From: Chiloscyllium plagiosum
Taxonomy: Eukaryota
Reading direction: 5' to 3'
DNA length: 64,000 nt
Assembly: GCF_004010195.1 (NCBI RefSeq)
Contig: NC_057755.1
Location: 5,211,643-5,275,642, forward strand
Shown: positions 1,721 through 53,362 of the stretch, one piece after another
Position numbering within the stretch: the first letter of the stretch is position 1
Layout: every line of letters starts with the position of its first letter
Notes under the pieces: generated by a model
Database searches by the model: none
Told to the model about the DNA's origin: nothing
Seen by the model: only the letters and a program-made list of their open reading frames with translations
Made by a program: the position numbers and the translations under genes

Positions 1721-1787
1721 CAGGAACACCAATGATGGCAATGAATACGTACACTATTTTAGAAATATTGTGGAATACGTCAAGCAT
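1721..1787 (-). CDS. First coding exon of a GPR139/GPR142-like GPCR (MLDVFHNISKIVYVFIAIIGVP + G); main exon presumably beyond the left edge of the window
   Basis: ATG at 1787, then 22 codons + 1 nt ending GGT GTT CCT G|gtaagt (phase-1 donor). Same pattern as the other first exons here. No GPCR exon 2 recognisable in 1-1720. Confidence 0.8.
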
Positions 1788-1863
1788 TTTACTCCGTGAA
1801 TTGGTCTGTAGTGTCGCATCCTAATGCGTTAAAATTGAGGCACGAAATTAATGCAGCCTGGGA

Positions 1864-1869
1864 TTTATA
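1864..1869 (-). promoter_or_regulatory. Candidate TATA box of the 1787 GPCR gene
   Basis: TATAAA on the minus strand about 80 nt upstream of the ATG, matching the spacing at the 20108 gene. Confidence 0.45.
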
Positions 1870-2124
1870 TCTGCGGGAAGTCTATAGAGATTTTAAGGCT
1901 GTAACACGTCTGTGATTTCAATCCAAGAACCAGCATACGTATTGGTTAAAAATATTTAAAAAACTTGAGGATTGGGAGCAGTTTAGTTTTCAGCAAGGGA
2001 GAACAAATGGGTTGATTAAGTGGGAGAGAGGTAGAGAATGAGTGTGAGCTTGTAGAGAACAAAAACAAGATTGTTAAATATTCTTTAGGCATAACAAGAG
2101 AAAAGAATTAATGGCTGGATTACA

Positions 2125-2372
2125 TACAGTGCAGAAACGGGTCCTTCGACCCAAACAGTTCACACCCACCTATTCCCCCCGACTAATACACCTGACACTA
2201 TGGGCAATTTAGCACAACCAATTCACCTGACGTGCACATCTTTGTATTGTGGGAGATACCTAAACAGACACAGGGAGCAAACTCTACACAGACAGTCGCC
2301 CAAGGGTGGGATCGAAGCCGGGAACCTGGTGCTGTCAGGCCGCAGTGCTAACCACTGAGCCACCATACGACC
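2125..2372 (-). mobile_element. tRNA-derived SINE, HE1/V-SINE type
   Basis: Minus strand begins ATGGTGGCTCAGTGGTTAGCACTG (A box), has a B-box-like GGTTCCCGGCTTCGATCCC and the central GATGTGCACGTCAGGTGAATTGG...GCTAAATTGCCC core. Confidence 0.85.
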
Positions 2373-2859
2373 ACAATCAAGCAACAAATTCAATTGCAAA
2401 TAATGGGAAACAAAATTAAATACATACTTTACTTCGGGCTTCACAAAGGAGGACACAAAAAACTCTCAGATAATATGGGGAAACAGAGTGTCCAATGAGA
2501 GGGAAAATTCATAGAGGCACTTCAGCCCATCGAGCTCACAGTGAAAACAAATTGCCCTCTAACTACGCAAGTCCCACTTTCCACCATTTGGCCCATATCC
2601 TTGATTCATATAGCATTTGAGTTCTTCCCCGAATACGTGTTAAAGCTGGTTAGATTTCTGTCTCCACTAACCTCTCAGTGCATTTCAGACCCGCGCCACA
2701 ATTTGGGAGAACAAATTCACTGAAATCCCCTTTAAAACTCCCGCTTTTCACTTTAAAATCAGCCCTGCTTGTTACCGAGCCTTCAGTGAGGGAACAGTAG
2801 ATGAAAACCTCACCCAGGTCTCCTTCGACCCTCTCTGTTCGAAAGTGAAAGTGAATTAC

Positions 2860-3730
2860 ATCAGAGTTAGTGAGAATGACATCAGGGTGAGTGAGAAAAT
2901 GGTGTTGAGCAAACTGATGAGATTAAAGGCAGATACATCCCTGAGGCCCTGTAACTGATGTCTCAGAGTATTAAAGGAAATGACCCAAACAGTAATAGAT
3001 GCATTGGTGGTCACCTTACAAGACTCCAGCAAAAAGTGAGGATTGCAGATGCTGGAAATTAGAGTCGAGAGTGTAGTGCTGGAAAAGCATAGCAGGTCAG
3101 ACAGCATCCAAGGAGAAGGAGAATTCACGTTTCAGAGAAGAGCCCTTCATCCTGATGAAGGGCTTATGCCTGAAACGTCGATTGCCATGCTTCTCGGATT
3201 ATGCCTGATCTGCTGTGCTTTTCCAGCCCCACACTCTCGAGCCTCCAAGACTCTACAGACTCTCGAACGTCACAACTCAAGAATATTACAGCTAAGAGCA
3301 GCAGTAGGCCATTCGGCCCCTTAATCCCTTCCTTACGATCACAGTTGATCGCAAGTTGGCATCAATCCCACTTTCCTGTTCGTTCTGTAGCCCCTCAAGC
3401 CATTGCTGATGAAAAAAACTATCAATTTCCTCCTTAAAATTACTCAATGTCCCTGCATCCACCACTCTCTGAGAGAGTGAATTCTGCAGATGCATGATCC
3501 TTTGAGAGGAATGATTCCTCCACATCTCTGATTTAAGTCTGCTAAACCCTTATCCTCTATCAGCGAACTCTCATTCCCCATTGGCACACATGAGGAAACA
3601 TCCTCTGTCCATCTACTTTGCCAATGCCCTTGAGCATCTGATATTCCTCAGTTTGATCTCCTTCCTTCTTTTGATACCCGGAGACTGTCAGCTTAAACTC
3701 CTCAATCTCTCTTCACAGGACAGTCCCTGA
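2860..3730. mobile_element. CR1-clade LINE fragments (plus-strand RT piece 2860-3270, minus-strand 3' end 3280-3730)
   Basis: Plus strand: KLMRLKADTSLRP...LKEMTQTVIDALVV-type CR1 RT linker. Minus strand: SQRVVDAGTLSNFKEEIDSF, a CR1 C-terminus. Confidence 0.7.
3027..3242. mobile_element. Palindromic Penelope-derived short element with hammerhead-like core, inserted in CR1
   Basis: Inverted arms 3065-3150 and 3153-3240 around CTGATGAAGGGCTTATGCCTGAAACGTC, flanked by duplicated CAAGACTC. Confidence 0.65.
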
Positions 3731-3879
3731 AGTGGGAACTGGTGGGTCAGTGATGTAATTTGAATATTTAAAGTGAGAAAACACTTAGTTAAGGACCAAT
3801 CAGAATGACATCAGAATCGGTACCAATGCACTTCTGCAGTTTTTCTATGTGTTTAATTTCCATCCCTCTTCAGACACCC

Positions 3880-4380
3880 AATGACAGTTCAAGTCTGTGC
3901 TCCCTGTTCCTGATCCCCAGGACATACATCGATAAAAACATCGACTGCACCTGGAGGAATATTAACCCGGTGTTAGATGCTCTTTGGTCTAACCGAAACA
4001 GGTCGTCTTCCAGAACAATGAGTTGACACCGATAGAGTGTTGCAGTCTGGCCCATTCGAAGGATTAGGATTATGTGATCTGGGATGCATGAAAGTTCGCA
4101 GCACTTGCCTCCAAGGTGCATAGGGGAAAGATCACCAGTTAAGGTCTTTCAGCCAATACACAATGAGAAGCTGTTCAATTATCAAGACATTCCAATGCCT
4201 CAAGTCCTTTTAAATATAAGCTTTGTGTGTAAGATGTGTCTTGGTTTTTTTTTAGATAGATTCAAACTCCTACGAATTGGTTTTCTTGTTATGCTATTGC
4301 ACAGAACTGTATTGCATTTATAACTCGCAATGTGTAAGTATCTTTTTAAATAAATAAGATATATTTTTATTAAGATTTTA
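3880..4380 (+). mobile_element. Tx1-type (L1 clade) LINE 3' end
   Basis: Degenerate ORF2 C-terminus NIDCTWRNINPVLDALWSNRN...ECCSLAHSKD.DYVIWDA, followed by an AT-rich 3' UTR. Confidence 0.7.
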
Positions 4381-6099
4381 AATGCAATAGATGGAAGGGA
4401 AACTTTCCTTGCAGTCCAATCTAGTTTCTTTAGAATACCTTTGTCTTAATTTTTTCCAAGGTGATTTAGAGATATCACACCTCTCTGGGTCTCTGCACTG
4501 GAAATCATGACCCGCTCTTCTTTCAGTTGTTACAAAAGTTAGTGATTAAAAAATGTACGTACAATTTGCCATTCCCTTCGACGAATGTTAACAGAAAGCA
4601 TTGACCAGTCATCTGCACTGTATGGTACTTGCAATTTATGGTAAGTAATTAGACTCCAGCAACAGCCAAACTATTATTGGCCATCAGTCTTTACCCAACA
4701 AATTAAATCTATAAACCTCTTCTACACACACAAACACACTCATACGCACACACGTGTACACACATGCAGACTAGAATAAAAAGAGTGTTTCGGATGGTGG
4801 GAAAACCTGTGAAGGAAGTTCCAATTCCACTTCACATTGAAAATGATTTGATTGTATTGATTCTCTTTTGATCAGAATGCTGAATCACAGTCTTCCCTCT
4901 TCGTAGGCTCCTACTAATTTACAAGAGGCAAGAGGTCAGATCCACATCATACACATTGTCCATCATCCTCATTAAACGGCAGAGCTCACAGGAACTACAG
5001 AAGGACAAATTAACCAGGTTTCTTCTGGCTTAAAGGAACTTTTCCTGCAGAGAACGGAGAGAGAGTTCCTATCAGCTGGAGGTCAGAGGCCTCTCTGGAT
5101 CTAGTTCAGTGCCCGAAGTGGTTCAACTGGCTGAGAAACAATCAAGTCGCTGTAGGCATTGATAATTGGTCGGTGGTTTACAAACCAAGCAACTACATGT
5201 TCTAAACCAGGGCTCTATCTGTTAGTACCTATTTATTTGCAAGCACTTCAATCATTGGGTCACTCTCATTGTCAGATGAATTGCATCTGAACCATGTAAG
5301 AATCCTGCACCAAACCTCTCTTTTGAAACTCTTTTTTTCTCATTTTAGTCAACAATTAAACTCCAGATTTCGAAAAAATACGCTCTTCATATGCTTCAGC
5401 CTTCTTAAAAATGAAATACTTTTCAAAAATGCATTTCCTTACAAAAGTACATAATGTACAAAAATAAAGCATCAGACTGAAATCCACTTTTTTCTTTCTC
5501 CCACCTGACAACGTTTAACAATTAGCGTTCCTTATACCTTTCACTTACTTCAGAATTTGACACTTGAGGCAATGCATTGGCACATGTATTACGTGTTCCA
5601 TGAAACGTGTTCTTGCATTTTCTGTTTGAAATTTTTCAGTGAAGGCCAATAGATTCTGATCATTGTAAGTTCGCATTTCATTCATCCTTGTTTAATATAG
5701 ACTTCATGGTATTGGAGAGCCAGCAGCAATCCTAAAGCTTCTATTTCTCTGGAAAATAATTTTACTATGATGCGTATTCTTTCCAAGAGTAGAACGTTAT
5801 GAACATGTCTATTCCCGATTCATCGTCTTGTAACACGACAGCACACAGCCCCAAGTCACCAGCATGAACTGCCATTTGAAAACTCTGGAAAACTCAGGGA
5901 TGGTCGATATTGGTTCTTTGATTCAAATTCCCTTAATCCTCACAAAGGCAGTCTCGCATTCTGCTAAGCAGACCACGTTTGTTTGGTTCCTTCACAACTG
6001 TCCAGCTAAGATTATGCACAATTTTCCACCATCACGTACATTCGTAAAAATCTACTAATTTCTCATTTAGTTTTAGGCAAAAAAGGAATTCTTGTAACA

Positions 6100-6830
6100 C
6101 AGAATGTTACAGAGCAGTACAACCCCTTCAACTCTCGATGTTGCACCAACCTGTGAAAGCAATCGTAGCCCATGTATCCTACACTATTCCATTCTCGTGC
6201 AGATGTATATCAAATGGCCATTTAAATATCCTTAAAGTTGGCAAATCTGATATTGCTGCAGGCATTGCATTCCACGCTCCTACTACTCTCTGAGTAAAGA
6301 AACTACCACTGACATCTGTTTTTTATCAATCACTCCTCAATTTAAAGCTATGTCCCCTCGTGCTAGCCATCATCATCTGAGGAAAAAGGCTCTCACTGTC
6401 CATGCTTTCTAATCCTCTGAGCATCTTGTATATCTCTATTAAGGCTCCTCTCAACCCTGTTGTCTCTAACGAAGACATCCTGCTAAATGTCATCTGCACC
6501 CTTTCCGATGCTTCTACATCCTTCTTATAATGTTGCGACCAGAACTGCATGCAATACTTCAAGTGTGGCAGCACCAAGAGTTTTGTACAGCTGCAACATG
6601 ACTTCATGGCTCCAAACGCAATCCATATCAACCTATCCACACTTCAAAAATCTTACCATTAGCCCAGTACTCTGTATGCTTGTTACCTCTTCCAAAGTGA
6701 ATCATCTCACACTTCTCCACATTAAACTCCATTTTCTACCTCTCAGATCGGCTCTGCAGCTTATCTATGTCCCCCTGTAACCTGTAACATCCTTTGCCAC
6801 TATCCACGCCTCCATCAACCTTAGTACCAT
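6100..6830 (-). mobile_element. CR1/HER1 LINE 3' end
   Basis: LVLPHLKYCMQFWSQHYKKDVEASERVQ...LRGALIEIYKMLRGL...TRGHSFKL. Confidence 0.9.
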
Positions 6831-6889
6831 TCTATTAGACTCTTCACGTTGGCTGTCATCCGCAATATTTGTGTGCTGCTCCAGGTATG

Positions 6890-7265
6890 ACTGCGTGTTT
6901 CTCTATGCATGTATGTCTCTGAGTGTCTGTCTGTGAGTATATGTCTGAGTGTCTGTGTACATGTGATTATGAGTGCATGCATGCGAGTGTTTATGTGTCT
7001 CCATGTGTTGCCTTTGTGTGTGTGTGTCTCTGTGTCTGTCTGTGTTTCTGTCTCCCTTTATGCATGCATCTCTGGGCATCTCCTTCTATTTCTGTGCGTG
7101 TCTGTGTCTGTGTGTATGTGCACCACCCTCTGAGTCTAGCTGTATGTTTCCGTCAATTAATCTGTGTGTGACTATCTATACGTGTCTGTCGGGATGTGTG
7201 TGCGTGGGTGTGTGTGTGTCAATGTATATAAGTGTGTCTATTACAGTGCGTGTTTTGCTTGTGCA
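6890..7265. repeat. TG-rich low-complexity tract
   Basis: Degenerate (TG)n/(TGTC)n. Confidence 0.85.
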
Positions 7266-7488
7266 TATATATCGGTGTCTATCTTGGTGCTGTTGTTGGA
7301 CTGGGATGGACAAGATCAGATGTCACACAAAACCAGATCAGAGTCCAACAAGTTTATTTGAAATCACAAGCTTTAGAATTACAACATGTGACTTTTGATA
7401 CCTCGCCTGTTTGTGCCTTTTGTGTGTTAACATGACAGTACTTTCGTATTTTGATGTGTATCTCTGTGTAATGGGGTCTAGATCACTC

Positions 7489-7790
7489 ACAGTGTGGATA
7501 CAGGCCGCCCGGCCCAACAAGTCCACACCGACCCGCCGAAGCGCACCCACCCAGACCCATTCCCCTACATTTACCCCTGCACCTAACACTACAGGCAATT
7601 TAGCGTGGCCAATTCACCTAACCTGCACATTTTTGGACTATGGGAGGAAGCCGGAGCACCCGGAGGAAACCTACGCAGACACGGGGAGAATGTGCAAACT
7701 CCACACAGTCGGTCGCCTGAGGCGGGCATTGAACCCGGGTCTCTGGCGCTGTGAGGCAGCAGTGCTAACCACTGTGCCACCATGCCGCCC
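7489..7790 (-). mobile_element. HE1-type SINE, well preserved
   Basis: GGGCGGCATGGTGGCACAGTGGTTAGCACTGCTGCCTCACAGCGCCAGAGACCCGGGTTCAATGCCC head, V-SINE core and CR1-like tail. Confidence 0.92.
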
Positions 7791-8612: not shown

Positions 8613-8613
8613 T

Positions 8614-8662
<49 letters not shown>

Positions 8663-9329: not shown

Positions 9330-10015
9330 AGCTGAACTCCCTCCCTGCATTGGGATAAGGGCACACTTCCAGGCATGCAATGGAATACTCCACACTTGCC
9401 CTGGATAGAGTCAGCTCCAACAACACCTAAGAAGCTCGACACCAGCCAGGACAAATCAGCCCCCTCTTGATTGTCACCACATTCTCAATCATCCCCTCCC
9501 TCCCCCACCGACGCTCGGTAGTAGTCGTGTGTACCAGCTACAATGTGCAGCGCAGAAATTCACCAAGGATCCTCAGTAAGCAATTTCCAAACACAAGCCC
9601 AATTCCATCTGGAAGGGAAAGAGTTCTGCTCTCCATCTCTTTGTCTCTGTGATTCTCTCCTTTGCTCACACTTTTTAGTCTCTTCTGGACTCAACTTGTC
9701 ACTACAATGTGTCTGACTGTCAGGGCATTGAGCAACAGAATTAAAGAAAATGACAGATACATGAGGATGCTACCTCACTGCAAATTTCCAAAGAAACCCC
9801 TTACTGTCCCGTCTTGAAAATGTATCACGTTCCTTCTGTGCTGCTTGTTCAAAATTCTGGAATTACCTTCCTCAGGGCATTGTGGGTCGGCCCACAGCAC
9901 ATGGACTGCAGTGTATCAAAAATACAGCTCACCCCCCTCTTCTCAGGTGGGGCAACTAGGGGTGGAGCAATAAATTCTGACACAGCCAGTGATGCACACA
10001 TCCCGTACAAGAATT
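9330..10015 (+). mobile_element. CR1/L2-group LINE 3' end, interrupted by a GPCR fragment
   Basis: MEYSTLALDRVSSNNT.KKLDT.QDK-like end and 3' UTR, colinear with the copy at 51620-52120. Confidence 0.75.
9624..9755 (-). pseudogene. Isolated ~130-bp GPCR fragment (TM5 end to ICL3)
   Basis: Translates FSLILLLNALTVRHIVVTS*VQKRLKSVSKGENHRDKEMESR, homologous to the same region of the intact genes. Confidence 0.85.
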
Positions 10016-10022
10016 GGAAATG

Positions 10023-12235: not shown

Positions 12236-13192
12236 TAGTCAGCTGACAAGTTCCTTGTTTGAAACTCTGAGCCGATGCATTCCCAGAGACACGGCCTTCT
12301 ACTGTGTCGAAGTTCTTTGGGGAGATCGAGTTGACAGGATTACTCAGCTTTGTTACTGTTTTTCAAAATTCTGGAAATGACCAAATGCATTACAATGATC
12401 AGTTTAATCTCAAAATATGAAGGAGCGTTACTGCTCAGAACATCATAACAAAATAACAAAAACTGAATCTGTCCACTCAAGCTGATCTCAAATCACAAAG
12501 CACTCTACCACACGGGGACAATCAACCCTTGCACAACACGGGCACATTTCTTCTATTGCAGCAGTCAGGGTTGTGGAATCAAGAATCTATGATAATTGAA
12601 TAATTTGAACACTTTCTGATGTCATGCAGAGCATGATGCCCGGTAGTAGACCAAGATATTTACAGAAAATGTTCCCTGTTCAGAAAGTGCACTGGAGCAG
12701 CTACTCCAAGTCAGCAATAAGGCCTTTATCACATGTATTGCTTACTGGCTATCAGCTTTATGTTGACTTAATGTGAAGATGTAGCATGGCCACAAGGGAT
12801 AAGAATGTGTCCAGGATCCCTGTCGAACGACCGTGGTGGGTGTAGATTGGACCTTGTGAATCCACCCTATGATATTGGGGCTGTTCAAGTGAAACCACCA
12901 GTGTATGTCGTATAGGAAACCACATACACACATGCACATGCACGCGCACACACACGTGCATGCATGCACACATACATAAACATGCGGGGACACACACGCG
13001 CGCGCGCACACACGTGCACACACCCGCATGTACACATGCATGCACATACATACACACAAACCTGGCAATGGACTATTCATTAAATTCACAGGTAAAATCT
13101 TTTCGAAAACGTTCACTGGGAAGTAATGCCAATCATCATAGATCTTAGCGAGTTTTGAGAAGATGTGTAACTCAACTTGAGGGTCTGGATGC

Positions 13193-13363
13193 AGGTTTGC
13201 TCGCTGAGCTGTAAGATTGATTTTCAGACGTTTCGTCACCCTACTAGGTAACATCTTCAGTGAGCCTCCGGATGAAGCTTGGTTCAGAGGCTCACTGAAG
13301 GTGCAACCTATTATGGTGATGAAATATCTAATAAAAGATCCTTGCAGCTCAGCGAGCAAACCT
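13193..13363. mobile_element. Fold-back Penelope terminal-repeat derivative
   Basis: AGGTTTGCTCGCTGAGCTG...CTTCAGTGAGCCTC is mirrored by GAGGCTCACTGAAG...CAGCTCAGCGAGCAAACCT. Related to the Penelope ends at 37890-37960 and 42090-42150. Confidence 0.7.
13224..13263 (-). ncRNA. Minimal type I hammerhead ribozyme motif (Penelope-associated)
   Basis: tca CTGAAGA t gttacc tagtag ggtgac GAAAC GTC tga: intact core, 6-bp stem II, palindromic ACGT stem III, 3-bp stem I. Confidence 0.6.
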
Positions 13364-15060
13364 AAATCTATAATACATCTGTCAGAGACACAGGGACTGC
13401 ATTGGTTACTTTCTGGTTTTACATGATTACATTTGCATGTTGTCTGTCGAATAACGAAATGAGGGACATAGAGATATGAGAAAAAGTCCCAGGTCAGTAG
13501 TTAATAGACAAATAATGATCCTGTCACAACATATGGGGCAGGAATGTTACTGGTCAATACCCTCAATTTGGAAAATAAACGCATAATCCTGGCTCAACAA
13601 GTCAAACGAGCCCAAGAAGCAGTGAAGTATAAACAATTAACAGGAGACCACATGATAACGACACAGAGTGAGGCTAGCCACCACCATGCTTGATGGTCAG
13701 GCCACAATAATTAACCAGATCATCCAGGACCCAATCAGGGATGACGGTGAACAACAAAACCACACTCTGTGCAGTCTCTATGGTAACTGGGATGATGGAA
13801 CAGCTGAGGGAGGAGCTCAGGCAGGTAAGCCAATAGAAAGTCCCTCCTTGGATCTGTTACAAACAGCGTGAACCATTTGTTCCAGGAGAGGACCAACACC
13901 AACATCTCTCACTGTCAGTGACACAGCTCACCAAGTTCTGGATTAATGAGAGCTGCAGGGACACTCTTAGTGAGGCACTGGGCCTGGTCCTCAGCATTCC
14001 AATTATCCCGAGGGACAAAGCTGGATTGGAGTCAAAAATATCAGAATTATATAAAAAGAGTATTTCGATGTACTACCATGATGTCCTTACATACACTGCA
14101 AAAAGACTGGGAGTATAAACAGGGATCAGTCTTAAGTAAATGTGAACAAACAGGAAATATGGCCGGAGCTTGCTATTCATGAATTAGGCTCCTCTTATAT
14201 CAGGTTGTAGGCTTATTGCTCTCACCTTGATATATGTCAGGATATTAGTTGCTATGATTGCTGGCTGGAAATGACAGATATCCCACTAAATGGGTGCGAT
14301 CATTATGAATAATACACACAGGGGTTATAAGATAGATGGAACACCATGAGTTATCACTTTATTTCTATTAACTTACAGAAGCAGAAATGAGGTAAAAATG
14401 CAAGGAGGGATTGACAAAAAGACGTCAATTGTTTTTGATACAGGGCTGCTAAACAAGTCAAGAGATTTGCTTCAGTGGATCAGCACCTTTCATTTATTTC
14501 ATTCCAAACAGAACTACATGCTATGAACATTTCAAAATATCCATAACTAGTTTGGAGTTTATGTTCACATCAGCAATCAGAATTTCTAACTTCAGATTGT
14601 AGTTCCGATAGTTGTGTGTCTGTTATGATGTACAGGGCATTAGACAGCACCTTGTCCTGTCGGCCCAGAAACAAATGGGGAATAGACAGGAATGGAGAAA
14701 ATCGAAGCCGCCATATTCGCTCCAACATTGCAGTCGAATTAGACATATGCATCACATTGTACATAGGAGGTCATTCAGCTCTTTGAGCGATATACTTGCC
14801 TTTGGTGCTTAAGATCTTTGAATAAAAATGTATCGATCTCAAATTTAAACCTATCAACAGATCCAGCGTCCACTGTTGTTTGTGGAAGAGACCTCGCCCA
14901 CCCTTTGTGAGCAAAACGCTTCATAATTGTCTGGCCCTGATGCACCCATGTTCTAAAATACCTAAACAATGGAAACTGTTTATCTTTATCTGCACTGTGT
15001 GGTTTTCCTGTTAGTATCTTGGAGACGTACACACTGAGGACTCTATGCAGAAATCGATCA

Positions 15061-16950: not shown

Positions 16951-17882
16951 TTATGTTGGACGCAAAATTTTGCAGTGTTTATTGAATGCATTGACCATTG
17001 TCAAGAAAAGCGTCCAAGGGAATGCAAGCACTTTATGTAGCTCTGACCTGAACTTAGTTTGCGTCATAGCATAGATGCATGTGTTTGCACAAGAACTCAA
17101 ATGGGTGAGCAGATGTCCGGTCTCAGTGGCAATGTATGGGGAGGAAATATAATGTATTTGATCAAGCACAGCCAAGGTGTTGACCATAGAATTGACTGCA
17201 GATGCCAGATTTAGCAGTATAAGACTGCCCGACACCATGAAGAGAAGAACAATCGATTTTCTTCGAGTTTTAATTTCTTGATCGCTCTGGTTTTCAGACT
17301 GCTGAGCCCGAAGTCTTCTGCGACGAATATTGCTTACTACAATGTGTCTGGCAGTCAAAACATTAAATAGTAATATGAAAAAGAAAGGAATCCATGTAAC
17401 TAAAAGATTTTGCAACTTCTCATAAGCTGCACCTATTGTTGATTTGAGAAAATTCACACTGGGACGGTATCCCCAGTGAATATTGTTAATTGTGCGTTGG
17501 TGTTCATATGCAAACCAAAATGGAATGTTCTCTAAGTACACCAGCACCGTGACAATTATTATGACCGTAGATGCAGTTCTCACTGTGCTATACTTGGTTT
17601 TATGCTTCACACAGCATATAGCTATAAATCGGTCAAAGGTGAAGCAGACTGTGTACCACACTGACAGATATACATTAGTGCAGCTCATGTACAATATAAG
17701 TTTGATGACCACAGTGTAGGAGAGGAATGAATATGGAAACCGTCTGCTCAAAATTTGAAACAAAATAACGTTAATGAGCATGACCAGCAGATCTGCTGTC
17801 ACCATCGCCAACATGTAGATTGAAATACATTTGGAAAGGCCGCAATTTCCTCTCAAGAGAATCACAGTTGCCAGGAGGATTG
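16951..17882 (-). CDS. Exon 2 (main exon) of intact GPR139/GPR142-like class A GPCR; joins exon 1 at 20039-20108 to give 333 aa
   Basis: Polypyrimidine tract and CTGCAG acceptor at 17883, then an open frame to TAA at 16951. 7TM pattern with RGNCGLSKC, ADLLV, SVWYTVCFTFDRFIAICC, RRKS and CANTCIYAMTQTKFR. 70+932=1002 nt, in frame. Confidence 0.93.
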
Positions 17883-20038: not shown

Positions 20039-20108
20039 CTGGAACACCAAAGGCTGCGAGCACAGGATAGAAGATATCCTTTATCAGTAAAATTATTGGC
20101 CGCACCAT
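20039..20108 (-). CDS. Exon 1 of the minus-strand intact GPCR (MVRPIILLIKDIFYPVLAAFGVP + G)
   Basis: ATG at 20108, 23 codons + 1 nt, donor G|gtattt. Phase 1 matches the acceptor at 17882. Confidence 0.88.
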
Positions 20109-20182
20109 TGTTTAGAAGAACTCAGTCAGTATCCCTTGTATCTTTTCGCTGAGAATGGATGGGAGATTCACGAAGGCTTCCC

Positions 20183-20189
20183 TTTTATA
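20183..20189 (-). promoter_or_regulatory. Candidate TATA box
   Basis: gcTATAAAAggg, a perfect consensus, 75-81 nt upstream of the ATG. Confidence 0.55.
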
Positions 20190-21244
20190 GCACAGTTGGT
20201 GATCAAGCATGAAATGAGTTTGCGAAATGTGAGTCCTTAATTAGTTCATTAAAAGACAGTTCAGTTCAGGCAGACTGGCAGTCCATGAAAGCTTTGCAAT
20301 CAAAATTCATCACAAGGAAATATATTGGTGAATAAGCATTGAATTAAAATGTGAGAAGCAATCACAAAGCTCATAAAACTAATATTTTAATATTAAAACC
20401 AATCTACTTGGTGAATTGGAAGCAGCAATAACTGTTCCTGCATTTTCACCTTTCTTGATGTCTGGGGTAGAGAGAATTATTGAGGAATAGCCAGCGATGG
20501 GGTCTTGAAGTTTGAGGAAGAAAGGATGTAAGAGAGACAGACAGATAGAAAGTAGAATTGCAAAATTTTGAAGAGTTGGAAGAGAGAGAGGGATGAGTGT
20601 GAGATCGAAAATGACAGAGAGAACAAGAAAGAGAGATAGAGAGAGAATGGTGAACGAAAGAAGCAGAATCTGCAATCTGTCACCGATGCTATCCACTGTA
20701 ACACCATGAAACTTATCCGGAAATCGCAAATTATTACAACAGGTACATCGCTGACCTCACTCTTTCTGACACTGTCCATCCAGTTATATCACTAAACGTG
20801 CAATAAAATTTATCAGGAAATGACAACATAGCTTTCTGTTATTATAATATAATTGCAGATGAATTGAGAAGATTAGTGAAGGATAGTGTGGGGTCAATAA
20901 GGAACACGTAGGGTGAGCTGCTTACTAGCAAATGTTATGGTGGAGATACTAAATTAATATTTTGCTTCTGTCTTTACTAAATTAGAAGATGGTGACATTG
21001 GCCCAGTTGAAACTATGATTGTTGAACAACTGAACAGTACAGAGATGGATAAAACAGAGATTCCAAATAGTCTGGCAGCACTCCAAACGTCACCAGACCT
21101 GAATGGGATACTTACGAGATTGTTGCGTGAGAGAAGGGAGCAGATCACAGAGACATTGATGGAAATTGTACAGACCTCTCCGAGCATGAGATAATTGCTG
21201 TCAGACTAGAAGATTTGACTGTGGCATTTGATTTCTGAAAGTGA

Positions 21245-22569: not shown

Positions 22570-24055
22570 GCTAGATTATGTTCAGGCCCTTAGCAGGAGC
22601 ATTAGTGTTACACACGACCAGGTCAGAGGTTGGAGCAAAACATTGCCAGGGTGGGATGGTTCTTTGATAATGCTGGCTGCCTTTCCTGGCCAGCGGGCCT
22701 GAGTAGATGGATTCTACGTACGGGAGGTTGGCCTTTGTGATTGTTCGGGCCGAGTTCACACTGTTACTCTCTGTAACAGTCTCCAATCTTAAATGGTACA
22801 GTTGCCATACCAGGTAGTGATACACCCAGACAGAATAATGCTCTCGATGGCGCACCTATAAAAGTTGGCAAAGGTATTCACCGTCAAGCCAAATTTCCTC
22901 AGCTGCCTGACGAAGAACAGATATTGCTGAGCCTTTGTAACCAGTGTGTTCACATGACGAGTCCAAGAAAGCTTGTTGTAGATGACCACACCCAGGAGCA
23001 TGACATTCTCCACTCGTTCCACCTCTGTGCTGTTAATGTGTGTGTGTGTGTGTGTGGGGGGGGGGCAATCAGTGACATCCCGTTGAAAGTCAATAATGAG
23101 TTCCTTGGTTTTGCCTGCATTCAGAGCGAGTTTGTTCTCAGTGCACCATTTTTCCAGGTATTCCACCTCCTCTCTGTAGTCTATTTTATTGCCATCTGAG
23201 ATTCGACCGACTATGGTGGTGTCATCAGTGAACTTGCAAATGGCATTACTCTGCTATTTGGCGACACAGTCTTGGGTATACAGTGAGTACAGTAGCGGGC
23301 TGAGTGCAGGCCCCAAAGGGCTCCAGTGTGGAGTGTTAGTGAGGATGAAATATTGCCCCCAATCTCTACTGATTGTGGCCTGTGGATCAGGAAACTGAGG
23401 ATCCAGTTCCAGAGAGTGGGGTGCAGTCTGAGATCACTAAGTTTAGTAATCAGTCTCCAGGAGAGAATAGTGTTGAAGGCTGAACTGTAGTCAATGAGTA
23501 GGATTCTTATGTCGCTGTTCTTGGTGTCAAGATGTTCTAGGGAGGAGTGAAGGGCAAGTGATATGGCATCTGACGTGGCTTTGTTGGTCCGATAGGCAAA
23601 TTGGAATGGCTCAAGTGTAGAGGGGAGGCTGGAGTTGATTAATGACATGACCAGCCTTTCAAAGCACTTCATGACCACTTAAGTTAGGGCCACTGGGCGG
23701 TAGTCATTGAGATATGCTGCATGAGCCTTCTTCGGCACAGGGATGATGTTAGCCCTGTTGAAACAGGCAGGGACAGTGGCCTGTTGCAGGGAGAGGGTGA
23801 AGATGCTCGGGAAGACCTCTGCCAGTGGAAATGTGCGTGCTCTGAGTGCACGGCCTGGTACTCTGTCTGGTCCCATCGCTTTCCTTGGATTCACACGAAG
23901 GAAAACTGATGTGACCTCTGATGCAGTGACTGTTGAGATAGTTTCGTCAGGACTTGTCGGAATAGGTGTTACCTCTCCGCCGAAATTTAGCTCAAAGCGA
24001 GAGTAGGAGGCGTTGAGACGATCTGGGAAGGGATGTGTCATCGTCTGCTATCTTG
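22570..24055 (-). mobile_element. Rex1/Babar-type non-LTR retrotransposon, 5'-truncated, frameshifted RT
   Basis: NPRKAMGPDRVPGRALR, IIPVPKK...LNDYRPVALT, MKCFERLV, QFAYRTN, LLIDYSSAFNTI, KFTDD, LNAGKTKELIIDF, NFYRCAIESI. Confidence 0.9.
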
Positions 24056-39769: not shown

Positions 39770-39801
<32 letters not shown>

Positions 39802-40735: not shown

Positions 40736-40802
40736 ATGCACATTCTAATTAAGACAGCACAGAAAATATTTTACATGGTCATCTCGTTTGTAACAATTCC
40801 TG
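40736..40802 (+). CDS. Orphan or alternative first exon of a GPR139-like GPCR (MHILIKTAQKIFYMVISFVTIP + G)
   Basis: AAAATG start, 22 codons + 1 nt, donor G|gtgagt. Same length and KI(F/V)Y...(V/I)P pattern as the 1787 exon. Confidence 0.68.
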
Positions 40803-42324: not shown

Positions 42325-44880
42325 AGTCCTAGAGATGTGCAGGTCCTGGGTATTTATCCACCTTTAACAGTTTCAAGACATCCAGCACTTTCTCCTCTGT
42401 AATCTGGACATTTGGCAAGGTGTCACCATACATTTCCTTACAGTCTAAATTTTCCATATCCTTTCCCACAATAAATACTGATGCAAAATATTCATTTAAT
42501 ATCTTCCCCATTTACTGTGGCTCCACACAAAGGCCACCTGGCTGATCTTTGAGGGGCCCTATTCTCTCCCTAGTTACCCTTTGACCTTAACATATTTGTA
42601 AAATCCTTTTGGATTCTCCTTAATTCTACTTGCCAACGCTATCTCATGTCCTCTTTTTGCCCTCCTACTTTCCCTCTTAATTATACCTCTACTTCCTTTA
42701 TACTCTTCCAAGGATTCACTCGATCTATCCTGTCTATACCTGACATTTGCTTCCTTCTTTTTCTTAACCAAACCCTCAATGTCTTTAGTCATCCAGCATT
42801 CCCTATACCTACCAGGCTTACCTTACACCCTGACAGGAATATACTTTCTCTGGATTCTTGTTGTCTCATTTCTGAAGGCTTCCCATTTTCCAGCCGTCCC
42901 TTTACCTGCGAACATCTGTCTCCAATCACATCTCGAAAATTCTTGCCTAATACCGTCAAAAATGGCCTTTCTCCAATTTAGAACTTCAACTTTTAGATCT
43001 GGTCTATCCTTTTCCATCACGATTTTAAAACGAATAGAATTATGGTCGCTGGCCCCAAAGTGCTCCACCACTGACAGCTCAGTTACCTGCCCTGCCTTAT
43101 TTCCCAAGAGTCGATCGCGTTTTGCACCTTCTCTAGTAGGTACATCCACATACTGAATCAGAAAATAGTCTTGTACGCACTTATGAAATTCCTCTCTAAC
43201 TAAACCTTTAACACTATGGCAGTCCCAGTCGATGTTTGGAAAGTTGAAATCCCCTACCATAACTACCCTATTATTCTTACAGATAGCTGAGATCTCTTTT
43301 CAAGTTTGTTTCTCAATTTCCCTCTGACTATTAGGTGGTCTCTTGTACAATCCCAATAAGGTGATCATCCCTTTCTTATTTCTCAGTTCCACCCAAATAA
43401 CTTTCCGGGAATATTCTCCTTCAGCACAGCTGTAATGCTATCCCATATCAAAAATGCCACTCTCCCTCCTCTCTTGGCTCCCTTTCTATCCTCCTGTAGC
43501 ATTTGTATCCAGGAACATTAAGCTGCCAGTCCTGCCCATCCCTGAGCCATATTTCTGTAATTGCTATGATATCCCAGTCTAATGTGACGAACCATGCCCT
43601 AGGTTCATCTGCCTTCCCTGTTAGACACCTTGCATTGAAATAAATGCAGTTTAATGTATTAGTCTACCTTATCCCTGCCTGCCCTGACTGTTGCGAATAC
43701 TTGTCCCATACACCAGCTCCTCAGCCATGCATTCATATGCTCTATCCACCTATTCCTGCTCTCACTGGGAGTAATCCAGAAATTACTAATTTTGAGAACC
43801 TCCTTTTTAAATTTCTGTTTAACTCTCTGTAATCTCCTTTCAGAATCTGAACATTTTGCCTTCCTATATCGTTGGTTGCATTGTGGACAGTGACCTCTTG
43901 CTGAGCCCTCTTCCCCGTGAGAACATTCTGCACCCTCTCTGAGACATTCTTGATCCTGGCACCAGGGAAACGACACACCATTCTGCTTTTTCTCTTCTGG
44001 CCACAGAAACGTCTGTCTGTACCTCGGACTACAGAATCACCTAACACAATTGATCTCTTGGAAGCCGAGGTACCCCTCGTTGCATTAGAGCCAATCTCAA
44101 TATCAGAATCTTGGCTGTTCGTGCTTCGTTCCCCTGAGAATCCATCACCCCTACATTTTCCAAAACAATATACCTGTTAGAAGTGGGTATATCCACAAAA
44201 GACTCCTGCCCTAGTTGCCGACCTCTCTCACCCTTCCTGGAGTTAACCCATCTAGGTGACTGTATCTGAGACTTCCCCCCCTTCCTATAACTGCCATCCA
44301 TCATATACTGTTGCTGTTGCGAATGCCTCATCGCTTCTATCTGTATCTCCAACCGATCCACCCGATCTGATAAGATTCGCATCCAAAAGCATTTTTGGCA
44401 GATATAATCCGCAGTAACTCTTAAACTCTCTTTAAACTCCCACATCTGACAAAAAGTACATATCACTGCAAAGGCGAGTTTTGCTCCTTCACAATCTACA
44501 GACCCAGAAAATAACACCGTCTTACTCCTCTACAAAACACTTCACCAGGTTAAATTAATAGTTATGGCTTATATTTTCATTTTAATCAAGAGTCTTATCT
44601 CCAAAAACATATAATCAAGAAAGAACCACTGTACTCACTAAAACAGCCTTTCCCTTGGACAGATGTAAAACAATAATTAACTTATCTGATTCTGTGCTGT
44701 GAACTTCGCCCAAACCAGTTCCTCCAAGATTATTTGTGAAATTCACTGTTTGTTAATTTTCCCAGCTGCACTCCGATGTCCAGCGACACACGAATTCAAA
44801 AACAGCAAAGGCAGTAACTGTGCAGATTCTCTCTCTCTCTCTCTCTCCTGCACTCTCCTCACCATGTGCTTCCGTTCATT
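42325..44880 (-). mobile_element. CR1/HER1 LINE 5' half: 5' UTR, ORF1 (zinc finger, coiled coil, SGNH esterase), APE endonuclease; truncated before the RT core
   Basis: CTFCQMWE...CQKC, LGDSVVRGTDRRFCG, VGDFNFPNIDW...GASDHNSIRF, LNEYFASVF, KVDKYPGP. Confidence 0.92.

Positions 44881-46550: not shown

Positions 46551-46580
<30 letters not shown>
46198..46580. repeat. Degenerate (CA)n tract
   Basis: Direct inspection. Confidence 0.92.
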
Positions 46581-46581
<1 letters not shown>

Positions 46582-48039
46582 CTGCAGGTTCAAACCCTGA
46601 GAAGCCCCAGAGACACACTCACGACACAAACTGTCACCAGTGTACTCCATAAACTAACACAAGATGTTTGCACAACCTAACAAAATCTTTGTACAATTTG
46701 AGACATCATTTTTTACCTGCCTGAGGAAAGGCTTGTCCCTCAAATTAAACAAGTGTTTTGTTCAGGTGTATAAAACGTTTTTCCCAAATTAACACAAGTT
46801 TATTCCACATATTTATGCAAAGTATTTGCACAAAGTCACACACATTTGTCCAAATGAATGCCGCATTTTTGGCCCAAAACGGACACTAATTTATTTCACA
46901 GAGTAACACAGGATTTTTGCACAGATTAATTGAAACCACGGTGCGCCAGTGCAGTCTTCAAGCTTGCTGAGTTTGAATTTTATCCGAATGAGGATATACC
47001 TTCTACAAATAAACAAGGCACCTTCACAATTCGACATCGGAAAAGGATTACACAAAAGGACAGGGAGGATAGGCCTGACTTGAGCTGACAACTCAGAAGG
47101 AACATGCATCAGAATTCACTCAATGAAAGAACAGCTGACCATCTGATATTGAAATGTAAGAAGAGAATTCTCTATGTTTGTCACCATCAAACCCTGACTG
47201 TCATCAAATTCTGAATAATAACAGAACTAACCCAATTCTCCAAATGACAACAGCAAACAAGCAAATGATGAGAATTCTGCATAAAGCAACTTCGCAGCCC
47301 TGTAGCAATTCCATAGCAATCCCAGGGATCCCCCGAACTCCACCCACCCTCCTCACTAAGTGTTACAATCCAGGACCTGACATCGACATCAATGTGACTA
47401 TGAGCTTAGGGATCAGTAAATTGGTTTCTCTGTATTGCAGGTCAGTTGCAATGGCTCAGAAAATAGAGCAAACGTTTTTATTTCCAGTTTAAACAAATAA
47501 AGTAATTTTAAAAATATATATGCTCAGAAAGATGAAACAATCTACGGTGCACACACACACACGCATACATATGCATACATACGTATATACACATCTCTAA
47601 TTCCATTCATTTGTTTGCATTTCTTTGCAATGTGTACTATTTAGAAACAATAAAATAAACAGCAGACAGGAGCAAATGCTCTAAAACATACATCACTGCA
47701 TTGGCGTGGGGAGGCCACCAGAGGTTGCCAATGTTTCACATTAAACAGATCGAGGACCTCTCTGTAGGCCACTCTGGCCTAATTACCTGACTATCCTCCC
47801 TTGTTCCAGAATTCCTAACCAGTCGTACTGCCCTTGCCTCCCTTCCTGATTGAACAGACCAGCAGTCCATCAAAGAATCCCCGCCCACCGACCCAGTACC
47901 TTTCCCTGGTTGGATACCCTGTCACCACCCTTTTTCCATGGCATGTGGAAGGTCAGTGTTGATTTGCGGCTGTTCCCCACCTGAGCCAGTCGACAATGGG
48001 GTGTACCTTGGATCTTGGTGTCCAATGCTATTGTGCAGT

Positions 48040-49000
48040 TGGATGAGAGAACAAAATGTAATATCCTAAAGTTTGCAGATGATACCAAGCTGGGTGGATG
48101 GATGAGCTGTGATGTGATTGTCGAGATTCTCCATCATGATCTGGGTAGGGTGGTTGAGTGGGCAAACCAATGACAGTTGCAGCATAATTTCGATAAGTAC
48201 AATGTTTTCACTTTGGGTGCAAAAACATGAACCTGAATGGGTGTAAATTGGGGGAGTGGAGTGTGCAGTTGGACCTGGGTCTACCTATGCACCAGTTAGT
48301 GAAGGTAAGCATGCAGGTGTAGCAGGCAGTAAAGAAGGCAAATGCAATGTTGGGTTTCATTGCGAGAGGCTTCGAGTACAGGAGCAGGAATGTGTCGTTG
48401 CAGTTATACAGGGCCTTGGTGAGGTCACCCCAAGAATGTTACAGGCAGTTTTGGTCTCCATTTCTCAGAAAGGGTGCTCTTGCTCTCGAGGAAGGGAGTG
48501 CAGGGAAGGTTTACGCAGACTGATTCCAGGGATGGTGGGATTGACGTGTGAGGAGAGATTGACCCAGTTAGGAATGCTGTCATTGGAGTTCAGACGAATG
48601 GGGGGGACGGGATAGGGTACATTTCATAGAGTCTTGTACAACTCTAACAGCACTAGACAGGGTAGATACAGGGAGGATATTCCAGTTAGTGGATGCTCCC
48701 AGAAACAGGGTTTACAGTTTGAGGATTCAGGGTGAACCATTTAGGACGGAGCTGCGAATGACGTTTCTTCACCCAAAGAGTGATGAGCCTGTGGAATTCG
48801 TTACCACAGGAAGTAGTTGTTGCAAAAAAAATAAATGTATTGAATAGGCGGCTAGATATAGCGCTTGAGTCGAATGGGATCTAATGTTCTGTGGAGAAAG
48901 AACGCGATAGTGATCAGATATGATCATGATGAATGATGGGGCAGGCTCAAAGGTTCGAACGGCCTCCTCCTGCTCCTATCCTCTCTGCTTTTATGTTTCA
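48040..49000 (+). mobile_element. CR1 LINE 3' part (RT FADD to 3' UTR)
   Basis: KFADDTKLGG, LIPGMVGLTCEERL and FFTQRVMSLWNSLP-like sequence. Confidence 0.88.
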
Positions 49001-50511
49001 ACTACTTTCTGACTGCTGCCGAATAGCTTTATCATTCAGTTTGTTGGATTAACTGTTTACAGTTGGCTGCCTTTTTGTGTGTAACTGGATCTACTCTTGT
49101 TCGAATATAATTACATTGATATAGGATATCGGGAGGACACATCATGAATGTGCTATCTAGTTACACATCTTCCTTTATGTTGGCATGTCACCATCTGTCA
49201 AATACAGTTTAGGCACCTCCAGTGTCATTTGTAGAGGTTTGACCCCTGTTACAACTAACATCGGAACATATTTTCTTCAGGAGTCTGTGCATAAATGAAG
49301 TGCCTCCTTTTCTGCCCCATTGAGGGTATTAGATTAAGTCTGTGCATTTAACATGTTTGTACTATGGTGCACAATAGCACACAAAAGCAATTGTCGACGT
49401 ATTTTTATTGGTCACGCTAAATTGTCCACAGTGTCCAAGGATGTGCAGGTAAGTTGGGTTAACTGTGGTAAATGGAGGTCAGTGGGATAGGGTGGGAATG
49501 AATGCTCTTTGAAGCGTTGGTGTGGACTTAAGGGGCTGAATGCCCTGCATCTGTAAGTGGTAACTCAGTGCCTCGCTTTGCTACCTTCCAGTGCTAGGCT
49601 CCTGGGTTTAGTACCATCCATATGGGCCTGCTTCCATCCTGTAGGGATTCTATTCTATGATTCATTTGGGAATGGCACAACTTAATTTCTGATGCCCGCT
49701 GAGTGATGTTTCCTCATATTCGATATCTAGTTGTTGAACCTAAAGGGGGCTTCTGAAATATAGGGAGCAAATGAGGTTCATTTTCAATTCTTCACGTAAG
49801 TTTGGTATTTGGATTCAAGAGCATATCCCTCCAAACCTTTCCTAATCATTTGTCTATCTATGTGTCTTTTAAACATTGTAACTGTTTCCTCGTACACCTT
49901 CGTCAGGAATCTCACTCCGAATACAAACCAGCATGGTAAGATTTACGAGACTGGAGTGGTTCTACTTCGAGGACAGAGGTTGTAAGGAGGTTGGAAAGAG
50001 CTGTTTAAAATCCATAGGGTAAATGGAGGAAAACTTATGCTGCTTTCGCGTGAGTGTCAGAGGTTGAGAGACAACCTGACAGGAGTATTTCAAATTGATG
50101 AGTTGCCTAGATAGGTTGGAAAGTTGGAGCCTTTTCCTCAGACTGTCGGTCATAGGTTTAAGGTGAGAGGGGGAAAGGTTAATGCAGATGTGCAAGGCGG
50201 GGTTTTTACACAGACGGTAGTAGTTGCTTGTAATGTGCTGCCTGGGGGTGAACAAATTAAATTTTTGAATAAGAAAAAGGATGATTTTTCAAGAACATTC
50301 TGAATGTGACTAACTAGCTTTCATTGTGGAGCATATCATAGTGCTGAACTGAGTTGTTTGTTCAATTAATTCTTCACTTAATGACCTCTCATGGGAATAG
50401 AATCTCCTCAAGGGATTCTTTCAAACTCTTTAAAGTGACAGCGCGCTTTCTCAGTGTCAGGTGAAGCATTTTGGTTCTCTTGAATGAGAGGGATCCTTGT
50501 GTAACGAACTC

Positions 50512-50608
50512 ATGGAGAGATGTCAAGCAGCAGAACAGAAGATACTCGATATACTTTATTCCGTAGAAAAGATATATTTTCCACTCCTGGCTTGTTTTGG
50601 TATTCCAG
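50512..50608 (+). CDS. Exon 1 of the plus-strand intact GPCR (MERCQAAEQKILDILYSVEKIYFPLLACFGIP + G)
   Basis: ATG at 50512, 32 codons + 1 nt, donor CAG|gtgagt. Phase 1 matches the acceptor at 52434. Confidence 0.88.
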
Positions 50609-50834
50609 GTGAGTTCCTCTGTCCTGTTTTGAAATCAATCCATATTTATTAATGGTCTGATGTCTTCGAACCGATGATAAGTATTGTTTAAAACATTCCA
50701 GATATCTCTGTCACTGCGCTATGAATTCAGATGGATCAATCAAATGATAATTTATGTTTGCTGTTTAAATTGCACTGCAGAAGTGTTGTCATAAAAATGA
50801 ATCACAAGTTGAGCGATTAACACACATTGAACTT

Positions 50835-52120
50835 TATTCATCTGGGAAGTGATGGAAGGTGTCAGCAACAGTGCTATCAAGCAGCACCTGCTCAGCAATA
50901 ACCTGCTCAGTTACGGTTCCACCAGGGCTAATCAGCTCCTCACCTCACTACAGACAAAAGAGCTGTATTCCAGAGGGGAGATGAGATTGACAGCCCTTGA
51001 CCACAGACTGCATTCGACCGAGTGTGGCATCAAGGAGCCGAGCATAACTAAAACCAAGGGGAATCAGGGGGCAAACGTTCTGCTATTTGGAGTCATACCT
51101 GATATATAGGAAAATATACTTGTTAGAGGTCAGTCATCTCTGCTCCAGGACATCTCTGCAGGCGTTCCTCAGGGTAGTGTGCTAGACCCCAACTACCTTC
51201 AGCTGCATCATCATAAGATCAGAAGTGTGGGTGTTCGCTACTGATTGCACAATGTTCAGCATCATTCCCGACGCCTCGGATACTGAAGCAGTCCATGTTG
51301 ATACACAACAAGATCTGGACAATTTCCAGGCTTGGGCTGTCAACTGGCGAGGAACATTCACGGCACACAAACACCAGGCTGTGACTGGCTCCAATAAGAG
51401 ACAATATGACCACTGCCCTATGACATTCAATGGTGTTACCATCACTGCATCCCCCACTATCAACACCATGGGGGGTATTCATTGACCAGAAACTAACTGG
51501 GATAGCCATATAAATGCAGCAGCTGCAAGAGGAGATTTAAGACTGGGAATCTTCCAACAAGTAACCCACCCCCTGACCCCCCAAAGCCTGTCCATCATCG
51601 ACAAGGCACGAGTCAGGAGGGTGAAGGAATATTTTCCACTTGCCTGGATGGGAGCAGCTCCACCAGCTCTCAAGAAGATCGACACCATCCAGGACAAAGC
51701 AGCCCCCGCTTCACTGGCACATCATCCACAAACACCCACTCTCACTATCGCCAACACGTGGTAGCAGAGAGTACTATCTACAAGATGCACTGCAGAAATT
51801 CACTAAAGATCCTTAGATCGCATCTTTCAAAATCATGACCACTTCCATCTAGAAGGAGGAGGTCAGCAAATAGATGGGAATACCAACCGCTACATGTTCC
51901 CCTCCGAGCCATTCACCATCCTGACTTGGAAATATATCGCTGTTCCTTCACTGTCGCTGCATCAAAATCCATTAATTCCCTCCCTAACTAGATTGTGGAT
52001 CAACCCACAGCACATATACTGCAGCGGTTCAAGAAGGCAGCTCACCCCAACCTTCTCAGGCGCAGCGAGGGGTGAGCAATAAACGCTGGTTGCAAACAGT
52101 CAGACCCATGTCTCACAAAT
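50835..52120 (+). mobile_element. CR1/L2-group LINE 3' half inside the GPCR intron
   Basis: GQSS...SAGVPQGSVLDP, FATDCTMFS, QQDLDNFQAWAVNW, KKIDTIQDKAA, then 3' UTR. Confidence 0.88.
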
Positions 52121-52433
52121 GAATTTAGAATATTAAGTCTAAAATTGACACAGGATTAAAAATATTTTTCTTTGTTGTTGTAGTTCGTTTATAACAGCTG
52201 ATCAAGTTAGAGGCATAACGGACATTGATTTGAAATGTTTGGTAAACTTTCTCTTTGTCATTTTATATTTATACATGAATAACTTTTAATGGTATAGTAT
52301 GTAGGTTTGCTAATTGATGTAGATTTACAAAAGTCTAGCACTGGAGAAAGGAGATAACTGTAATTTTTAGCTTTTGTAACGCTACTCTTCACTAATTTTT
52401 TTAATGGGACTATTTGATTTCTTTCCTTTACAG

Positions 52434-53362
52434 CAAATCTAGTCACAACTGTGATTCTCTCTCGGGGTAAATGTGGTCTCTCTAAGTGTGTCACCAGCTA
52501 TCTGATGGGCATGGCTCTGGCAGATCTACTGGTTGTTCTCATTGATCTGATACTAAGACACATTCCAGTTGTGTATTGGCTGAAGTTCATGTTCCTATGG
52601 TATGTGCCTGTATGTAATATACATGCTGTCTTCCTCTATGCTGCGACAGACTGTTCTGTCTGGTTCACCGTTACTTTCACCTTTGACCGTTTTGCAGCTA
52701 TTTGCTGTCAGGAGTTCAAAACAGTGTATTGCACAGAGAAAACTGCAGCTGTTGTTCTTGGAACAATCACTGTGCTATTCTGTTCAAAGAACATTTTCTG
52801 GTATTTTCTGTACACGGGAGAATATCTGCTTGCTAATTATCCCTGGTTTTGCTTCATACCAAGCAGTTTACTTTTCTCAGAGGTCTGGATAGTAATTGAA
52901 TTCCTCCATTATATTTTAAACCCATTAATTCCATTTGTCCTTGTTCTGCTGTTCAACGTATTGACAGTCAGGTATATTGTAGTGGCCAGCAGATCCCGAA
53001 AGAAACTGAAGGGTCACAGCAGATCTGAGAGAGTCTGGGACCCAGAGATGAACAATCGAAGGAAATCAATGAAATTGCTGTTTGTTATATCTGGGAATTT
53101 TGTTCTATTATGGGCGGTGTTTCTTATTTATTTTGTTTGGAGACGTATGTGGTATTTAGGATATAAATCTGTACGGATGCCCGCATTAGTTAGAGAAATT
53201 GGATTCATGCTTCAGCTCCTGAGTTGCTGCACAAATACCTGTACTTATGCTATGACCCAGGCTAAATTCCGAGAGCAATTGAAGAATGGTTTGAAATATC
53301 CATTTAATCTAATTGCGAAAATATTTAAGTCATCAGATGGAATAAAAGCGTCCTGCAGTTAA
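52434..53362 (+). CDS. Exon 2 (main exon) of intact GPR139/GPR142-like class A GPCR; 341 aa with exon 50512-50608
   Basis: TTTCTTTCCTTTACAG acceptor. ANLVTTVILSRGKCGLSKC, MALADLLV, PVCN, SVWFTVTFTFDRFAAICC, PWFCF, DPEMNNRRKS, CCTNTCTYAMTQAKFR. 97+929=1026 nt, in frame. Confidence 0.95.

Follow-up and report, generated by a model that had tools for sequence, protein, structure and literature searches.

A large family of class A receptors in cartilaginous fishes, carried under a GPR139 label and represented at a bamboo shark locus, as a candidate chemosensory repertoire

The OR, TAAR, ORA/V1R and V2R families of vertebrates and the rodent vomeronasal FPRs form tandem clusters with species-specific births and deaths, a fixed cytoplasmic face and a variable pocket; the TAAR and FPR olfactory families were co-opted from a non-olfactory ancestor. 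Clusters, turnover and a variable outer face also mark immune G-protein-coupled receptor (GPCR) families, and the MRGPR and FPR repertoires of immunity and nociception are expanded class A receptors with variable outer faces. GPR139 and GPR142 are activated by L-Trp and L-Phe, and the Trp/Phe site of GPR139 includes F3.33, H5.43, W6.48, R6.51 and N7.38 (PMC5430874). Cartilaginous fish have been described with about 54–65 chemosensory genes (65 in the catshark) despite large olfactory organs (PMC6368271). The present work concerns a 64,000-nt stretch of the genome of the bamboo shark Chiloscyllium plagiosum (NC_057755.1, positions 5,211,643 to 5,275,642; hereafter, the window), which contains two intact receptor genes, A and B, and relics of others. 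The genes belong to a family that is real, larger than had been guessed in an earlier model-made reading of the letters (the sequence-only reading), and mislabelled by annotation. Judged by profile scores and tree position, this family is an expansion of a separate old class A lineage, a cousin and not an orthologue of GPR139/142.

Six-frame translation and tBLASTn found two intact two-exon genes (16951-53362, with a further piece at the window edge), both encoding class A (rhodopsin-like) GPCRs. The two proteins scored 53.9 and 49.7 bits with the Pfam 7tm_1 domain (curated cut-off 30.5), the only other Pfam match being a weak one to Srx. The predicted structure of gene B exon 2 (pLDDT 79.6) has a seven-helix fold that fits class A structures, none of which was singled out; in the Foldseek comparison with this model, GPR139 was not distinguished from other class A receptors. 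The closest named relatives of gene A are whale shark and zebra shark proteins (80–81% identity), whose gene models also match its N-terminus. The four cytoplasmic motifs listed in the sequence-only reading (RGxCGLSKC, FTFDRF.AICC, RRKS..LLF..SG and YAMTQ.KFR) were present in both intact proteins.

An exhaustive family-profile search (139 representatives at E 1e-30) ranked salamander, coelacanth, silverside, anchovy and caecilian proteins as the best named non-chondrichthyan full-length matches (235, 217, 197, 134 and 117 bits, respectively). Human GPR139 scored 76 bits, about a third of the salamander and coelacanth values; it is the nearest solved structure by sequence (the next, 51 bits). 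Assignment of the family to the GPR139/GPR142 orthology group was rejected on these scores. The likeness to GPR139/GPR142 extends to the lack of proline at 7.50 and, in gene B, to H5.43 and W6.48, whereas R6.51, N7.38/39 and P6.50 are lost in the family. A bamboo shark owns separate single gpr139 and gpr142 genes, and their orthogroup contains at most 3 genes per species (PMC13689627), so the one-to-one orthologue slot is filled by these genes and not by the family. The sequence-only reading had taken the genes for GPR139/142-like paralogues, and scores, tree and the gpr139/gpr142 pair of a bamboo shark replace this with a separate old lineage.

A tree was constructed for 49 proteins under a mixture model, GPR139 being compared by score and not placed in it. 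The amphibian–sturgeon clade was sister to the 33 chondrichthyan rows (100/99), which formed a clade of their own (94/91). The next branches were a coelacanth–teleost lineage, an anchovy–caecilian lineage and then an amphioxus clade (99/95). A protein of the amphioxus clade scored 167 bits with the coelacanth relative versus 80 with GPR139; because it is twice as close to the former, the split from GPR139/142 may predate the vertebrates, as these scores suggest. Three fish sets near GPR139/142 have been named GPR210 by Rinne et al. 2019, with no sharks included (PMC6504862). By their place in the tree, the coelacanth and teleost lineages may correspond to GPR210A/B. Invertebrate relatives of the wider clade include the MIP/sex-peptide, FMRFamide and myosuppressin receptors (PMC8514136).

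The sister receptor of amphibians and sturgeon is carried in RefSeq as "probable GPR139" (e.g., XP_069092602.1). A search with the salamander protein returned 25 matches, namely, 20 amphibian clusters (66–74%), one sturgeon protein (46%) and four elasmobranch proteins. Each amphibian cluster was named from a different species, that is, one cluster per species, unlike in sharks. The absence of teleost and amniote orthologues from this search is weak evidence, the word-based method having recovered only 4 of many shark members. In the amphibian and sturgeon receptor (P0330, P0403-P0422), the charged pocket is near-invariant, N stands at 2.50 and S at 1.50, and most of the GPR139 site is kept. 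The ancestral ligand should be tractable through the amphibian orthologue, which is a single gene. Because the orthologue persists in frogs, which have lost electroreception, a link of the family to that sense was rejected.

As for the size of the family, protein searches with B and A (E 0.001 or better) gave 1580 and 746 clusters, respectively, numbers that should not be read as family sizes, because lower-ranked matches may include other receptors. The best 120 matches of each were examined; those of gene B all came from sharks and those of gene A from sharks or rays. Within these lists, at <95% identity, at least 76 distinct genes among 86 models were counted in Heptranchias, at least 70 among 75 in Heterodontus and at least 34 among 34 in Pristiophorus; at <90% identity, the counts were at least 57, 65 and 32. 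The counts are minimum numbers and cover two subfamilies only. In Heptranchias and Heterodontus, the family thus exceeds in a single shark the described catshark repertoire of 65 genes, while hidden beneath a misleading automatic label. The family is expanded in sharks, rays and chimaeras to tens of copies per genome and, at the upper range that we infer, to hundreds.

The nearest neighbour came from the same species for 157 of the 180 models, and species labels changed 25 times on the tree versus 79.3 times after shuffling (as low in 0 of 200 shuffles). Many clustered copies, species-specific clades and pseudogenes were thus found together, and the birth-and-death expansion proposed earlier holds; neither few copies nor one-to-one orthology, named in the sequence-only reading as outcomes against it, was seen where testable. 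Among 20 representatives looked up, 18 were chondrichthyan, including two proteins of the chimaera Callorhinchus, which nested at separate places among the shark members (97/89 and 97/86). The radiation therefore predates the chimaera split, and "chondrichthyan" is the proper term for what had been called an elasmobranch expansion. Subfamilies span sharks, rays and chimaera, and the best matches of A, of B and of the pieces C, D and F fall in three different, old ones. Whether it serves in smell or in immunity, this is an extensive set of receptors confined to one of the two lineages of jawed vertebrates.

The family is apparently undescribed. No description of it was found in the open-licence literature (subscription papers lay outside this scope), and the main text of the catshark sensory paper never uses the name GPR139. 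The same name is absent from the supplements of PMC11372145, PMC10529500 and PMC13188829, which is no evidence, since the genes may bear LOC identifiers there. A metagenome scan gave 138 pattern matches, of which 0 were confirmed.

The copies were next compared region by region. Class A anchors on the gene B protein set the position numbering, all alignment rows being kept, and the pocket was defined by the usual class A set. Proteins A and B agree at 65/105 inner transmembrane (TM) positions and 16/22 positions of the G-protein face, but at only 3/33 pocket positions and at 3/10, 5/26 and 0/10 positions of extracellular loops (ECL) 1, 2 and 3, in line with the conserved cytoplasmic and divergent outer faces claimed earlier. 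In the 20 amphibian orthologues, column identity was 0.81 overall, 0.97 in the pocket, 0.83, 0.81 and 0.94 in ECL1–3 and 0.91 on the G-protein face. The A-type paralogues of three sharks (n = 25, 27 and 28; overall 0.64–0.70) showed 0.50, 0.43 and 0.48 in the pocket, less than at non-pocket outer positions (0.65, 0.59 and 0.67), and 0.83–0.88 on the G-protein face. For gene A and its two orthologues, the pocket value was 0.90. Pockets are thus held in orthologues and changed in A-type paralogues. In the B-type paralogues of two sharks (n = 61 and 48; overall 0.76–0.77), the values were 0.81 for the pocket, 0.40–0.57 for the loops and 0.92–0.94 for the G-protein face. The chemoreceptor pattern, a pocket fixed in orthologues and variable in paralogues, was found in the A-type sets and between subfamilies, and the B-type variation lies in the loops.

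The family differs from the vertebrate olfactory families in ancestry and in a two-exon gene structure whose intron falls in TM1; in the features named at the outset it is like them. We consider it a chemosensory repertoire, olfactory or related and probably the former, at slightly better than even chances on these comparisons. The old receptor would have stayed single in amphibians and sturgeon, with its pocket frozen. Tandem duplication from before the chimaera–shark split onward would have produced the present tens to hundreds of copies per genome, each retaining its G-protein face and altering its ligand face. Each copy may bind a different water-borne ligand and signal through one shared pathway with a common G protein, the likeliest site being sparse cells of the olfactory system or of a related chemosensory kind. 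Peptides or other polar or charged small molecules are the probable ligand class, because the pockets are polar and the lineage has peptide-receptor kinship. More tentatively, and somewhat short of even, these receptors may add a fifth family to the olfactory receptors of vertebrates, larger than any other chondrichthyan chemoreceptor family, derived by co-option of a peptide-receptor-like lineage and activated through the Lhx2/Ebf code of mammalian odorant receptors. If so, the view of a shark nose relying on a few dozen V2Rs would be overturned.

At the five GPR139 positions listed above, gene B has Y, H, W, F and F and gene A has C, Q, N, S and H. The amphibian gene keeps three of the residues (F3.33, W6.48 and N7.39) together with lysine at 6.51, gene B two together with tyrosine, and gene A none. 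The amino-acid site is therefore not kept, and the aromatic amino-acid ligand suggested by the earlier GPR139/142 assignment does not carry over. Amphibian retention of these residues, including a basic 6.51, would fit internal sensing of nutrients, hormones or reproductive peptides in gut, rectal gland, gonad or brain, with the ancestral single-gene role kept, as would the kinship to the invertebrate peptide receptors. An endogenous ligand fixes the pocket, as in amphibians, whereas the shark paralogues have lost basic 6.51 and N7.39 and diversified, and one hormone hardly explains dozens of species-specific copies; we regard such a role as improbable.

Largely neutral growth, in which unstable, repeat-rich regions multiply copies that then mostly decay, would explain why 4/7 of the window's receptor pieces are damaged or orphaned, with long interspersed nuclear element (LINE) relics in between. 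It would also account for departures from consensus at 91 conserved sites (17 in A and 9 in B versus a median of 3) and for the gene B coding differences described below, all listed ones being non-synonymous. Against this, most gene A departures are common to the intact whale shark and zebra shark orthologues, divergence is concentrated on the ligand face with the G-protein face spared, and subfamilies persist in sharks, rays and chimaera. Largely neutral growth is accordingly rated very improbable. Gene A and its orthologues lack both disulphide cysteines and W6.48, while I at 1.50 occurs in A alone; this carpet-shark subtype (A, P0121, P0122), with the class A disulphide and W6.48 gone, is nevertheless intact in three species.

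An innate immune or barrier repertoire, in which granulocytes, mast-like cells or epithelial cells would detect peptides of microbes or parasites much as with FPRs or MRGPRs, is a more serious competitor, which we still consider unlikely. The cluster, turnover and outer-face signature is the same as in immune GPCR families, and the fixed polar pocket with variable loops of the B-type is as expected of a shared peptide anchor. Fusion gene models place members beside TRIM, integrin alpha-X-like, immunoglobulin, trypsin and uromodulin-like genes (5/23 long models), but other fusion partners are sodium channel, hexokinase and hemopexin genes, so the neighbours are mixed. No sequence kinship of MRGPR/FPR to the shark family was seen beyond class A. 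A scan of nine motifs in four promoters (A, B, D and E) found no NF-kB site, interferon-stimulated response element or clear PU.1 excess, and the composite site before gene B resembles an olfactory enhancer element.

This composite, on which the proposed olfactory control draws, consists of TAATGA, two bases and an Ebf-like palindrome. Gene A has TTAATGA at 144 nt (134 nt for the gene B equivalent) without the Ebf half, there being 14 TTAATGA-type sites in the window; the D and E promoters have neither half. In the Lhx2/Ebf composite probe of Monahan et al., the distance from TAAT to the pyrimidine–purine block equals that in the gene B site, and in mouse the composite is an enhancer feature enriched over OR promoters (PMC5608512), for which reason the match is a lead only. 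The pattern as written after the sighting occurs 1 time in the window (chance mean 0.01). Looser definitions match 2–7 window sites, with a chance of 0.04–0.14 that any precedes one of the four ATGs. A homeodomain/Ebf-like site at 14000-14016 was rejected as a pseudogene C promoter, since it lies inside a coding-like relic with no decayed exon 1 adjoining.

Several points weigh against a chemosensory, and especially an olfactory, function. Ebf and Lhx2 act outside the nose too. The composite was spotted post hoc among the nine motifs, is complete in 1/4 promoters (the homeodomain site in 2/4) and, when fixed to the probe spacing, has 2 strict and 7 loose window matches at a chance of about 0.04–0.13. 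The B-type pocket is more conserved than outer helix positions that lie off the pocket, so some duplicates have kept the pocket they had. The p-values for the pocket and face contrasts are overstated, given the non-independence of both sequences and alignment columns. Gene B differs from two other DNA samples at coding positions 50527, 52890, 52932 and 53024 (4/4 listed differences non-synonymous), which fits weak constraint on this copy; one difference hits the conserved TM5 proline P5.50. Catshark OR, TAAR and ORA genes lack olfactory specificity and some V2Rs are expressed elsewhere (PMC11979771), so expansion of a class A family does not fix its tissue. The same paper lists no GPCR among the top 50 catshark olfactory genes, which is uninformative for sparse receptors. 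No RNA data set was listed as carrying gene B. Two single-cell runs from one sample of unstated tissue (~2% and ~6% read) gave 0 reads on gene B exons, an equally uninformative result; 402 reads fell on gene B intronic repeats in one run and 0 in the other.

The coordinates of the receptor pieces and promoter elements are given in Table 1.

Table 1. Receptor genes, relics and promoter elements in the window
Feature	Position	Strand	Description
Gene A	exon 1 20108-20039; exon 2 17882-16951	-	Intron 2156 nt; product 333 amino acids, sole stop terminal
Gene A exon 1	20039..20108	-	23 codons + 1 base, donor GTATTT
Gene A exon 2	16951..17882	-	Intact; without TM3-ECL2 cysteines and W6.48, as in whale shark and zebra shark orthologues
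Gene B	exon 1 50512-50608; exon 2 52434-53362	+	Intron 1825 nt; product 341 amino acids, without internal stop
Gene B exon 1	50512..50608	+	32 codons + 1 base; matches N-terminus of sawshark orthologue model
Gene B exon 2	52434..53362	+	Intact seven-TM receptor
Gene D exon 1	1721..1787	-	22 codons + 1 base, donor GTAAGT; TATA 82 nt upstream; exon 2 expected outside window
Orphan exon 1 E	40736..40802	+	22 codons + 1 base, donor GTGAGT; without own exon 2
Pseudogene C	about 10960-10086	-	Consists of exon 2, with several frame changes, stops and a decayed acceptor; best matches in third subfamily
TM5 to intracellular loop 3 (ICL3) fragment	9624..9756	-	Duplicate, 81% identical to part of pseudogene C, embedded in repeat
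Fragment F	about 26800-26594	-	Decayed TM1-ECL1 part of exon 2, truncated by repeat
Gene A proximal promoter	20180..20256	-	Upstream of ATG, TATA at 81 nt and homeodomain-type sites at about 135 and 143 nt
Homeodomain + Ebf-like composite site	50379..50396	+	133 nt upstream of gene B ATG

With a family first-exon profile, the first exons of A, B, D and E took ranks 1–4 among 58,897 open 16-mers (scores at these ranks 44.5, 29.9, 22.0 and 13.1 bits; top background 7.1), and all four end in a proline codon plus one base followed by a phase-1 G/GT donor. A tiny exon 1 had been claimed for all members; this stands for these four pieces and is uncheckable for pseudogene C and fragment F (near 26.7 kb), because neither has a recognisable exon 1 and their acceptors are decayed. 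The earlier inventory of two intact genes, an edge gene (D), a pseudogene (C) and an orphan exon (E) was recovered, with two loose fragments in place of one. No exon 2 for E was found before gene B, nor does an N gap in between conceal one; E is in phase with gene B exon 2, as a candidate alternative first exon. No exon 2 for D was found inside the window, and D is not callable as intact.

The very short N-termini noted earlier do not hold for the whole family: in B-type models, about 60 residues (median) precede TM1, with WN-x-T sequons in 28/46 and 17/27 scorable models. In many B-type relatives (P0004-P0120), the N-terminus contains a tandemly repeated unit of 14 residues that bears an N-glycosylation sequon and varies in copy number.

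Other cellular genes were not found among 30 frames scanned in the window. LINE reverse transcriptase and endonuclease relics lie between the receptor genes (22792-23678, 42826-43299 and 61607-61987). The 133-nt receptor fragment is located inside a high-copy repeat (9376-9974) that is also present in the gene B intron, which suggests capture or local rearrangement. A 33-bp tandem array (54126-58816; >120 copies with an assembly gap) starts about 760 nt past the gene B stop. An Rfam search of the window gave no match, including for a hammerhead-ribozyme-like core (CTGAAGA, hairpin, GACGAAAC) detected at 13230-13260 on the minus strand (region 13136-13370; 1 match versus 0 in 100 shuffles). This core adjoins a coding-like relic at about 13610-14140, an arrangement that resembles a Penelope-like element.

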